From contig JACONC010000002.1 of NCBI GenBank assembly GCA_014323925.1, positions 58,571 to 122,570 of the forward strand: DNA of 64,000 nucleotides, in the 5' to 3' direction. The position numbers and the translations under genes were made by a program. Numbering within the stretch: the stretch's first letter is position 1; every line of letters begins with the position of its first letter. This document shows positions 16,011-17,858 of this stretch, piece by piece. The notes beneath the pieces are model-generated. The model was not told where the DNA came from, ran no database searches, and saw only the letters and a program-made list of their open reading frames with translations. Origin of the DNA: Chromatiales bacterium. Lineage in GTDB: Bacteria; Pseudomonadota; Gammaproteobacteria; Poriferisulfidales; Oxydemutatoraceae.

Positions 16011-16754
16011 TTAACTGCGATCCAGTATTATAGGAATTTCGTTCCAAATTTTTCCGTCAAGATCCCTACCATTGACCTTTTTGTTACGGCTCTGCCCATC
16101 TTCACCCCAACGTCCCCATTGTTTGAAAAAAAACGGAATCTTCTTTGTCTGGCATTGTTTTTGAATTGACATTACCCAGGCTTTATCCATCAATCTGGCT
16201 TTATGCCCGGATTCACCACCCACAATGACCCAATGAATACCATCCAAATCTATTACACCTAAATCTTCTAATAAGGGTTCTATAGATAAAAATCTTATTT
16301 TTGCTGAAATTTCACGCAGTATTGGTATTCTTGGAAGGCCATGTTTCTTATTTTCTACTGAAACACCAAGCCATATATTGTCAGGAATCATACGCTTATT
16401 AAAATATTTTGCCATGATTTTAGGGCGCTTGGTTAAAAGCTGATAGTTATGTTGTGGCGACTGGTGGATTGTCTCCATAACACGGTCAATAAAATGAAAC
16501 GGAACATAAGGATGGAATAAATCACTCATTGAGTTTATAAAATATATGGTCGGTGTTTTACGCAGCAACGGCTGCTTTAAGCGCTCTTCATGGCAAGACA
16601 CGGTAAAGCCGTTTTCATAACCAGAAACCCTCATAGCCTGCAATCGTCGTGCCATTACTTCGGCATAACAATACTTGCATCCTGCTGATATTTTTGTGCA
16701 ACCTGTAACAGGATTCCAAGTGCGTTCTGTCCATTCAATGCCTGAATTACTCAT
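16011..16754 (-). CDS. DUF5131 / phage Gp37-Gp68 family 'three-Cys-motif' protein
   Basis: Family-hallmark N-terminus [27 protein letters not shown] (Cx6Cx2C), downstream NSMSDLFH and GGESG motifs; last gene of R-M operon. Confidence 0.8.
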   Translation of the reverse strand: [247 protein letters not shown]

Positions 16755-16778
16755 GCTTCAAAACCATAATTTTATCCG

Positions 16779-17858
16779 TTAAAGAAATAAAGTTGGGTTT
16801 CTATTTTTTTTGAGAGAAATCGTAATTTTATCTTTGTATTTATTTCTGTCCTTGTATTCTGTTAGGTAGAAAGCACCTGGTGTTCTTTTCTGCTTCGGAA
16901 TAATTTCTAGTTTCCCTTCTATTTCCATTTCCTGTAGCACAGGGCGAACATCAGGAGGTAAAAAACCTTTCTTAACAATTTCTTCTGACAGTTCTGTATT
17001 ACTTATTGGTCCCTGTTTTTTAAGAAGCTCAGACAGATACTGATTTATTTGAGCATTATTAAAATCAGAAAAAGTTAGTTGCTGTTCTAGCTTATTTTTT
17101 ATATCATTTTTTGCTTTCAAAAATTTTTCTGCACCAGTTCTATGCTTAGTAATAAAAAATAAATGGTAGTGCGTATTTGCTACATTTCTGTTTTCTAATT
17201 CATAACTGTATCCATATTCAGTTTGCGCCATTTCTTTTAGAATTTTTATTAGTTTATCTGCAAAAGTGTGCTTTTTGCTTTTGCTTAATTCGCTCTCACT
17301 CATGCCTAAATTCAAAAGAAACCGGCGGGCAGGTTTATCTTTGTCATCTTTGTTATCTTTATCATCTTTGAATCTATAGATATGGTAGGTTGGCATAAAG
17401 ATCAAATAATCAATATTCCTTAAACTGAATAATCTAACTAAGTTGTCTTTTGAATATTGAGTATAGCCGTATGGATCTATAAAAACCAAGCTATGTAGAT
17501 TACGCTTTCCAGCCAAAAAATGGCTCATTCCATCTAGAAATTTTTTAGCATCCGCATTGAAAGTTTTCACAAAGTCTAAGTATTTATCCATTGATTTTTC
17601 TAGTCGCCGATGCTTTTCATCGTCTAGTTCGTTTAGAAATAAACGAATGTCTTTTTTATTATATTTTTCTCTAAATTCCTTTATAGTTTCTACCGCCACC
17701 ATTGCACTTCCTTTCTCTCCACCATCGTATACTCCTTCGCCTGCGAATGGTTCCCATACAGCAATCCTATCCCACTGATCTGAATTGCACATAACGAAAA
17801 GATAATGAGTTAGATACGCTTCGTATACGGCTATCTTCTCTTTTGTGTGTGGTTTCAT
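16779..17858 (-). CDS. TcmP-like partner protein (three-Cys-motif partner family), function unknown
   Basis: 359 aa; N-terminal HTKEKIAVYEAYLTHYL resembles recalled TcmP start; 24 bp upstream of DUF5131 gene on same strand; internal (DKD)n repeat; no HMM confirmation possible here. Confidence 0.45.
   Translation of the reverse strand: MKPHTKEKIAVYEAYLTHYLFVMCNSDQWDRIAVWEPFAGEGVYDGGEKGSAMVAVETIKEFREKYNKKDIRLFLNELDDEKHRRLEKSMDKYLDFVKTFNADAKKFLDGMSHFLAGKRNLHSLVFIDPYGYTQYSKDNLVRLFSLRNIDYLIFMPTYHIYRFKDDKDNKDDKDKPARRFLLNLGMSESELSKSKKHTFADKLIKILKEMAQTEYGYSYELENRNVANTHYHLFFITKHRTGAEKFLKAKNDIKNKLEQQLTFSDFNNAQINQYLSELLKKQGPISNTELSEEIVKKGFLPPDVRPVLQEMEIEGKLEIIPKQKRTPGAFYLTEYKDRNKYKDKITISLKKNRNPTLFL

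Follow-up and report, generated by a model that had tools for sequence, protein, structure and literature searches.

Two families of neighbouring genes, those for the three-Cys-motif partner proteins (TcmP; TIGR04474) and those for the DUF5131/Gp37-Gp68 proteins (PF07505), are the subject of this analysis, which starts from one such pair, tcmP and DUF5131, in the Chromatiales bacterium contig JACONC010000002.1. The stretch analysed, the window, comprises 64,000 nucleotides (nt), and all coordinates are positions in it. The closest described systems are PDC-M30 and PDC-M41 of PADLOC. These come from a set of 145 PDC candidates that were recognized by 'guilt-by-embedding' in BREX, DISARM and Type I loci and are predictions without a mechanism (Payne et al. 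2024). The window proteins match both components of PDC-M30 end to end, PDC-M30A over TcmP residues 1-349 (E 1e-53) and PDC-M30B over DUF5131 residues 1-243 (E 8e-112), and they also match M41. As in the PDC systems, the two genes are adjacent and stand next to a restriction-modification (R-M) system; the window pair differs in following a Type III-like cassette instead of being embedded in a Type I, BREX or DISARM operon. It is likewise a full member of TIGR04474 and PF07505 with the adjacency that defines them; the family definitions themselves carry no function.

The original prediction for this DNA had put the pair forward as the window's best candidate for an undescribed system. That description does not apply, as the pair is already named in TIGR04474 and listed by PADLOC as PDC-M30/M41. 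It is a member of a catalogued family, and the window locus was not seen to do anything beyond what the family does elsewhere. New with respect to the catalogue are the RlmJ/Dam-like fold with an added winged helix in TcmP, the fold of DUF5131, which resembles spore photoproduct lyase (SPL), the survey of the pairing, an asymmetry in evolutionary rates and a clue from the SOS response. Our preferred reading, to which we give about an even chance, is that tcmP and DUF5131 constitute a self-contained, horizontally mobile, DNA-directed radical S-adenosylmethionine (SAM) pair that modifies or demodifies bases independently of the Type III mod-res genes beside it. The pair itself consists of:

16779-17858, minus strand: tcmP, 359 amino acids (aa), three-Cys-motif partner protein, TIGR04474
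16755-16778, minus strand: spacer between tcmP and DUF5131, 24 nt, no hairpin
16011-16754, minus strand: DUF5131/Gp37-Gp68 gene, 247 aa, PF07505, predicted minimal radical-SAM-fold enzyme

Both family assignments of the original prediction were borne out: DUF5131 matches PF07505 over positions 1-243 of 243 (E 4.4e-106; 354.3 bits against a cutoff of 28.9) and TcmP matches TIGR04474 over model positions 1-261 of 263 (126.5 bits against a cutoff of 53). The window copy has two distinguishing features. In its closest relatives tcmP and DUF5131 overlap by ~20 nt, where the window has the 24-nt spacer, and its TcmP carries a KD-rich repeat loop that is unique to it. The pair is intact, with all conserved residues present.

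Predicted folds and conserved residues

A predicted structure and a fold search indicate that TcmP combines a class-I SAM-methyltransferase fold with a C-terminal winged helix, the best structural match being RlmJ, the 23S rRNA m6A2030 methyltransferase. Conservation was assessed over 88 sequences with identity down to 15%, and the following elements of TcmP were delineated:

17835-17837, minus strand: codon of K8 in the N-terminal helix, candidate counterpart of the RlmJ motif-X residue K18
17733-17753, minus strand: motif I, E36-P-F-A-G-E-G42, putative SAM-binding loop after strand beta-1, from conservation and the model
17463-17483, minus strand: motif IV variant, F126-I-D128-P129-Y-G131-Y132, putative base-binding/catalytic loop after strand beta-4, from conservation
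17335-17370, minus strand: 9-nt tandem repeat in three to four copies (repeat families D1-D3), encoding the window-specific KDDKDNKDDKDK loop
16893-17105, minus strand: winged-helix domain, residues 252-322, matching PF22560 GMT-wHTH at E 9.8e-5, below the gathering score

The FAGxG loop of motif I follows a strand at E31-36 in the model, and its residues F38, A39, G40 and G42 are conserved at 88-99%. K8 and D128 are present in 100% of the sequences, and P129 and G131 in 94%. In RlmJ the essential catalytic pair is formed by K18 in the N-terminal motif X and D164 in the motif IV DPPY, and its active site has been described as resembling that of the DNA m6A methyltransferases. Motif IV of TcmP occupies the position of RlmJ 164-DPPY-167, the Asp of which is essential; the residue correspondence is by position in the fold, not by superposition. 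Since K8, FAGxG and D128-P are conserved as in the K18/D164 site of RlmJ, TcmP appears to keep an RlmJ/Dam-like constellation. Nonetheless, the TcmP motif IV is not a canonical (D/N)PP(Y/F/W): the family consensus is DP[YFH]G[YF], in which only the Asp-Pro is kept. TcmP thus differs from RlmJ, Dam and M.TaqI in this motif as opposed to their DPPY, in its extra C-terminal winged helix and in its constant pairing with a radical SAM protein. PF22560 is also precomputed for several TcmP homologues, and the model shows a layout of helices and a beta-hairpin in that domain. The N-terminal domain matched no Pfam family, and neither sequence nor profile comparison linked TcmP to RlmJ or any other PDB chain; PDB sequence searches with TcmP and DUF5131, and with the TcmP profile, yielded nothing useful. 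The KD-rich insertion KDDKDNKDDKDK does not occur in TcmP homologues; its segment 162-170 is the only internal loop in the model with a pLDDT below 50, and the repeat is probably an expansion through replication slippage.

The resemblance to RlmJ raises the alternative that the pair modifies rRNA or tRNA, by analogy with RlmJ (m6A2030), RlmN and Cfr. An rRNA methyltransferase is indeed the best structural match of TcmP, and one phage record annotates DUF5131 as 'RNA methyltransferase'. We nevertheless regard an RNA-modifying role as improbable: the contexts described below consistently involve DNA (R-M systems, the SOS regulon, and genes for integrase and repressor, replication and DNA methylation), a winged-helix domain is present in TcmP, the active site of RlmJ has itself been likened to that of DNA m6A methyltransferases, and a sporadic, mobile distribution is atypical of housekeeping enzymes that modify the ribosome.

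For DUF5131, the fold search recovered a radical-SAM fold with a partial (beta/alpha)6 TIM-barrel core, the closest fold being SPL. In agreement with this, RadicalSAM.org places DUF5131 in Megacluster-5-2, adjoining SPL at 5-3. Two conserved elements stand out among 121 sequences:

16668-16700, minus strand: three-Cys motif C19-x6-C26-x2-C29, putative [4Fe-4S] site, from conservation
16206-16220, minus strand: G179-G-E-S-G183 in the last core strand, from conservation

C19, C26 and C29 are present in 120 of the 121, with a gap in the remaining one. The spacing Cx6Cx2C does not conform to the canonical CX3CX2C. Variant spacings of the cluster motif occur in accepted radical SAM members, so this spacing does not exclude DUF5131 from the superfamily; moreover, an aromatic residue directly precedes the third Cys, as is typical of radical-SAM CxxxCx(aromatic)C motifs. 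The suggestion of the original prediction that the motif is radical-SAM-like is therefore upheld by the fold, the subgroup placement and the near-invariance of the cysteines. G179, G180, E181 and G183 are 100% and S182 97% conserved, and it might be conjectured that the GGESG strand takes part in SAM binding; R187 and K211 are also invariant or nearly so. C201 was considered as an SPL-like H-donor Cys and set aside: it is 92% conserved, with A, S or V in 10 of the 121 sequences, and on account of this conservation such a residue is not established in DUF5131. In comparison to SPL and the COG1533-type proteins (PA0069, Rv2578c), DUF5131 is ~100 residues shorter, has Cx6Cx2C in lieu of CX3CX2C and matches neither of the SPL family models TIGR04070 and TIGR03886. 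With 247 aa, it would comprise little beyond the radical-SAM core, which fits an enzyme that needs a partner for substrate binding.

Among other radical SAM proteins, DUF5131 matches the mobile pair A family (TIGR04471) at E 1e-31, and the alternative TcmP partners described below match mobile pair B (TIGR04470), all below the cutoffs, and by a wide margin (110 vs an equivalog cutoff of 355). These are also small radical-SAM-like proteins on mobile elements; however, mobile pair A/B joins two radical SAM proteins, whereas the window pair joins a radical SAM protein to a methyltransferase fold. A functional analogy may be drawn with the two-SAM radical methylases, such as RlmN/Cfr and class C enzymes like NosN, which are single polypeptides. 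They resemble the pair in having two SAM sites, one of the radical-generating and one of the methyl-donor type, and a nucleic-acid base as the substrate, which for the pair is putative. Among radical SAM enzymes, only the prokaryotic viperins (pVips) are, to our knowledge, well known for a part in anti-phage defence; their substrates are free nucleotides, they do not require a methyltransferase-like partner, and DUF5131 lies outside their family. The pair brings together two SAM-dependent folds in a combination that no characterised system has, and C19/C26/C29 of DUF5131 and K8/D128 of TcmP are the candidate key residues.

The pairing and its genomic company

A TcmP profile scan over one genome per species yielded 51 loci spanning Gamma- and Alphaproteobacteria, Verrucomicrobia, Bacteroidota, Chloroflexi, Elusimicrobia, Desulfovibrionales, Actinobacteria, Firmicutes and Archaea. 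DUF5131 immediately adjoins TcmP in 39 of these. The two genes overlap in the same direction or, in Actinobacteria and Chloroflexi, converge and share 4 nt at their tails. At the remaining 12 loci the neighbour resembles a different three-Cys or SPL-clade radical SAM protein: a family scan confirmed five of these through weak matches to the PA0069, Rv2578c, mobile pair B and SPL models, while the other seven were assigned only by the shared motif GC.HGC.YPCYA. When the TcmP-neighbour proteins were pooled, Pfam Radical_SAM matched eight of them. Starting from the other gene, TcmP is adjacent in 33 of 80 viral or prophage DUF5131 loci, as judged with a clade-biased hidden Markov model. A third conserved gene was sought in the neighbourhoods of the pair and none was found. 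The conserved two-gene module that the original prediction proposed is thereby substantiated.

The pair is found in bacteria, archaea, phages and plasmids. TcmP falls into 7,192 clusters at 50% identity (E <= 1e-3) with a uniform architecture, no domain fusions being seen among the best 150 matches of its profile search, and DUF5131 into more than 8,000 clusters at 90% identity. Across the same 72 loci, the median identity to the window proteins is 20% for TcmP and 50% for DUF5131. At the level of sequence, this asymmetry is the pattern of a fast-evolving specificity subunit coupled to a conserved catalytic one. The closest homologues of the pair come from sponge symbionts. In Microbacterium, two TcmP paralogues accompany a single DUF5131, in tandem at two loci (L049, 9971-12476; L050, 54-2643) and divergently at a third (L045, 8380-11083); the second copy is very divergent (E ~1e-8 to 1e-10).

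The genomic company of the pair in the window is as follows:

20950-23610, minus strand: mod, 886 aa, PADLOC MTase_III (E 7e-197) and PF01555, N6/N4 methyltransferase with IDPPYN; context, outside the module
17924-20968, minus strand: res, 1014 aa, Pfam ResIII helicase (E 1.2e-17), Type III-like; context, outside the module
17859-17923, minus strand: spacer between res and tcmP, 65 nt, AT-rich, no hairpin, weak promoter-like hexamers
15973-16024, minus strand: terminator-like hairpin (16024-15987) across the DUF5131 stop codon and the U-rich tract after it, from RNA folding

All four open reading frames (ORFs) lie co-directionally on the minus strand, and mod and res overlap each other. The original prediction had read mod-res-tcmP-DUF5131 as one unit with spacers of 65 and 24 nt and no obvious terminator between the genes. 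Its measurements are exact, and neither spacer contains a terminator-like hairpin, the first being the one at the DUF5131 stop, which the consensus scan missed and RNA folding revealed. Read-through from res into tcmP is hence possible, there being no terminator before the end of DUF5131. The 65-nt spacer itself folds at -4 kcal/mol (z 0.18) and holds a perfect TATAAT 6 nt before the tcmP ATG as well as CTAACA-17-TAGAAT at 17920-17892. Aligned to the regions upstream of tcmP in its relatives, it displayed no convincing common promoter, and the consensus promoter scan was uninformative, with fewer matches than in shuffled controls.

The unity of the four genes does not extend to their relatives. 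The three closest mod-res relatives checked (L141, L142/L143 and L144; Res 63-66% identical) are two-gene cassettes without the pair, followed by genes for a GTPase, T5orf172 or rpsL that are unrelated to it. In OZ244779.1 the mod-res cassette and the TcmP pair are 1.3 megabases (Mb) apart, and the pair adjoins a Type I system. Likewise, the closest homologues of TcmP (55-58% identity) and DUF5131 (85-89%) stand beside Type I systems in three arrangements: divergent from hsdM, and hence with a promoter of its own there; downstream of hsdR, where no more than a C-terminal part of tcmP is left; and upstream of hsdR. The second of these is the locus of the closest DUF5131 relative (89%; L055, 9781-10008), in which a 66-75-aa C-terminal remnant of tcmP comes right after the Type I hsdR and DUF5131 is intact; the same hsd operon also holds an embedded TIR / CTD10 / MC6 / DUF2326 cassette. 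The G+C content at third codon positions (GC3) is 0.28 in tcmP, 0.35 in DUF5131, 0.45 in res and 0.37 in mod. Because the relatives' mod-res cassettes lack the pair, the related pairs stand beside Type I systems and GC3 differs, the window arrangement is, as judged from the sequences, a local juxtaposition of two independent mobile cassettes rather than a conserved four-gene unit.

These observations make it very improbable that the pair belongs to the Type III operon as an integral, co-transcribed accessory, serving restriction control or a second modification for this mod-res. Such a role could draw on the tight, co-directional layout and the position of the first terminator, on a second genome (L023) with a Type III res by a TcmP pair, and on the fact that the R-M types found beside the pair, I, IIG and III, are all SAM-dependent and adenine-methylating. 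Against it, apart from the relatives lacking the pair, the separation in OZ244779.1, the promoter implied by divergence from hsdM and the GC3 of tcmP compared with res, stand the convergent orientation in L023 and the many loci at which the pair occurs without any R-M system. In L023 (11050-16643) the Type III mod and res genes are split by a TIGR02391-family gene, and tcmP diverges from DUF5131 and converges with res.

R-M neighbours do recur in at least five independent settings, involving Type I (L001-L007, L055-L057), IIG (L011, L012) and III (L023 and the window) systems, so that the placement of the module beside R-M systems, as originally noted, is not peculiar to this locus. Other neighbours are mostly heterogeneous. 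In the Gordonia phage Fairfaxidum, TcmP (109 bits) lies between the integrase and the immunity repressor, directly downstream of the latter on the same strand, and is convergent with DUF5131. The founding 'Gp37' of phiE125 adjoins the integrase and attP; the phiE125 gp38 was tried as a TcmP and matched neither TcmP nor any NCBIfam model. Lone DUF5131 genes of phages sit among DnaB, RusA, exonuclease and PAPS-reductase-like genes and three classes of DNA methylases. None of the phage DUF5131 genes examined is in a structural module. The original prediction had named homologues that are uniformly prophage structural genes as counting against it, and this is not what was seen. In the Mycobacterium prophage prophiGD13-2 (L140, 3483-5548), DUF5131 is longer, at 326 aa, and is annotated as 'RNA methyltransferase'; its gene overlaps one that is PAPS-reductase-like, with a DNA methylase and an HNH endonuclease close by, and this may represent a different DUF5131 partnership in phage replication modules. 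Finally, TcmP adjoins the Hna defence gene in S. meliloti, and the gp37 COG (COG4422) is enriched in sponge symbionts, as the R-M COGs are.

Contexts of this kind are also what might be expected if the pair were a stand-alone anti-phage defence system, with TcmP sensing or binding invading DNA and DUF5131 damaging that DNA or making an antiviral product, independently of R-M. Beyond the strong matches to both PDC-M30 models, whose class was built from genes that lie inside BREX, DISARM and Type I loci, this explanation can call upon the R-M neighbours in at least five contexts and at all three nearest relatives, the lysogeny-module position downstream of the immunity repressor, the adjacency to Hna, the shared enrichment of COG4422 and the R-M COGs in sponge symbionts, and the resemblance of a fast-evolving partner and a conserved enzyme to a sensor/effector split. 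We consider it possible but doubtful: the 145 PDC systems are predictions, no plaque data for M30 or M41 were found in the literature searched, neither protein has a recognisable toxin or nuclease domain, and most neighbourhoods are not related to defence. Furthermore, the SOS control and the adjacency to recA or dnaE2 in Actinobacteria point to DNA-damage physiology, and lone DUF5131 genes in replication modules suggest a use to the phage itself.

LexA boxes and the DNA-damage response

Of 24 high-GC genomic loci, 11 have an exact LexA box of the actinobacterial type, GAAC-N4-GTTC, ahead of DUF5131, compared with an expectation of ~0.007 per 200 nt:

L029, L030, L032-L034, L036, L037, L039, L040, L042 and L048: exact LexA boxes, ~20-50 nt upstream of the DUF5131 start

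Measured from the IEWT codon of DUF5131, the offset is 60-76 nt in ten of these loci and 126 nt in L030. In loci of Mycobacterium, Rhodococcus, Nocardia and Chloroflexi (L031, L051-L053), boxes with one mismatch occur upstream with an offset of 43-140 nt, and at one locus an imuB-dnaE2 cassette lies immediately upstream. Most of the exact boxes are in related Solirubrobacterales and are therefore not independent events. Published data on M. tuberculosis are in agreement: Rv2734, which the phiE125 record names as a homologue of gp37, and Rv2735c, which converges with it, are part of the recA-recX cluster that mitomycin induces. Rv2735c shares a transcript with recA-recX and is frameshifted in many clinical isolates. 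LexA boxes were absent from 30 high-GC viral loci, and gamma-type (CTGT-N8-ACAG), alpha-type and Gram-positive-type boxes were absent from the vicinity of the window pair and of its nearest relatives; for this reason the SOS link is not transferable to the window locus. A RecA motif was sought in the fetched loci without success. A single exact alphaproteobacterial-type box (GTTC-N7-GTTC) is seen just upstream of tcmP at another locus (L021, 9912-9926), which may be due to chance given that many motifs and loci were tested.

The SOS boxes bring up a further alternative, namely that the pair is a module for DNA-damage repair or tolerance, in which an SPL-like radical lyase would undo a base lesion or crosslink while TcmP, as the recognition subunit, flips the lesion out, and which would be carried by mobile elements in the manner of umuDC or imuB-dnaE2. 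SPL is both the nearest fold and the neighbouring sequence cluster of DUF5131, and the alternative TcmP partners match SPL and 'DNA repair photolyase'-type models. To these are added the boxes in 11 loci with their near-matches in Mycobacterium, Rhodococcus, Nocardia and Chloroflexi, the adjacent imuB-dnaE2 cassette, the mitomycin induction of the M. tuberculosis homologues and the presence of Rv2735c in the recA-recX transcript. A lesion-recognition subunit would, however, be expected to be conserved, yet TcmP stands at 15-20% identity as opposed to near 50% for DUF5131; the distribution is patchy and mobile, with synteny varying even within Solirubrobacterales; and DUF5131 itself matches no SPL family model. 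Together with the lack of SOS boxes in the window, its nearest relatives and the viral loci, and the frameshifts in Rv2735c, this leads us to view a dedicated repair function as unlikely.

Proposed action of the pair and other features of the island

Returning to the DNA-directed, base-modifying or demodifying pair that we favour, its action could be envisaged as follows. TcmP would bind DNA through the winged helix and flip a base, most likely adenine, into its SAM-holding Dam/RlmJ-like pocket. DUF5131 would dock on TcmP and reductively cleave its own SAM, and the resulting 5'-deoxyadenosyl radical would abstract a hydrogen at or near the flipped base. The outcome would be a covalent change of a DNA base: either an adduct or methyl group would be removed or lysed, as by SPL, or the base would be C-methylated or hypermodified by two-SAM radical chemistry. 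The former is attractive on account of the SOS control and the adenine-methylating R-M neighbours; the latter, as a split version of the two-SAM reaction, on account of the SAM site that TcmP keeps intact and of the company of methylase genes in phages. In this division of labour the fast-evolving TcmP would give target specificity and the slow-evolving DUF5131 the chemistry, and the pair would be used in DNA conflicts and DNA-damage responses, in keeping with the defence islands and prophage lysogeny modules in which it occurs and with its place in the SOS regulon of Actinobacteria.

A fuller version of this scheme, which we offer tentatively and at well below even chances, is that TcmP-DUF5131 is a split two-SAM radical enzyme conducting sequence-targeted radical chemistry on DNA bases, be it by erasing methyl groups or adducts from N6-adenine independently of oxygen, or by radical C-methylation or hypermodification of a flipped base. 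Mobile elements, prophages and hosts might deploy it to rewrite the methylation read by Type I, IIG and III restriction, with a recruitment to the LexA regulon in Actinobacteria. We also considered the pair as a guard against SAM depletion by phage SAM lyases, given that the neighbouring R-M systems need SAM; no evidence bears on this idea.

Several observations weigh against the DNA-directed radical-SAM reading. An R-M neighbour within two genes on each side is found at only ~12% of the non-redundant loci. The Cx6Cx2C spacing is non-canonical, with the [4Fe-4S] site and SAM cleavage being predictions, and the variant motif IV of TcmP may mean that it has changed or lost the ability to transfer methyl groups or bind adenine. 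The substrate of RlmJ is rRNA, and in vitro the enzyme left single-stranded DNA unmethylated, on which grounds an RNA substrate of the pair keeps some of its likelihood. The SOS boxes are missing at the window pair and its closest relatives and occur in a single broad clade only, for the most part in Solirubrobacterales that are related to one another, and Rv2735c is not confirmed as a TcmP. Lastly, the literature searched for DUF5131, TcmP, PDC-M30/M41, PF07505 and COG4422 contains no biochemical or genetic study and no published function of the pair, in line with the view of the original prediction that DUF5131 has no characterised one. Should the pair indeed act on DNA, the modification, demodification or repair of DNA would gain a radical-SAM route, and there would be an explanation for a passenger that recurs at restriction loci, in prophage immunity regions and in the actinobacterial SOS regulon, the M. 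tuberculosis recA locus included.

The mod-res genes and the pair together occupy a low-GC insertion adjoining rpsO. Flanking direct or inverted repeats were sought at the ends of this island, with only short, chance-level matches, and no tRNA was found at it. The mod-res lineage has features of its own: the res product matched none of the PADLOC restriction-enzyme models, despite the strong MTase_III match of its Mod partner, and in its C-terminus the sequence LPDFIF...VFVDPKG forms a PD...(D)xK-like motif, and a PF27151 'YagJ' domain is precomputed. The lineage may accordingly be an under-modelled Type III variant. Its cassettes adjoin housekeeping operons, namely rpsO-pnp in the window (15477-23610), rpsL-rpsG-fusA in L144 and the atp operon in L141, and a small GTPase gene (MMR_HSR1) recurs near mod-res in the relatives (the L141, L142 and L144 set).

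Elsewhere in the window, a further large gene with restriction-related domains was observed:

32270-37210, minus strand: ORF of 1646 aa with an N-terminal Mrr-type nuclease, a ResIII helicase and an NPPF methylase motif

From its sequence, the product resembles the R-M enzymes of Type ISP, which consist of a single polypeptide. The gene represents a separate, second restriction insertion, with a GC content of ~0.48-0.50 that lies above that of the mod-res island.

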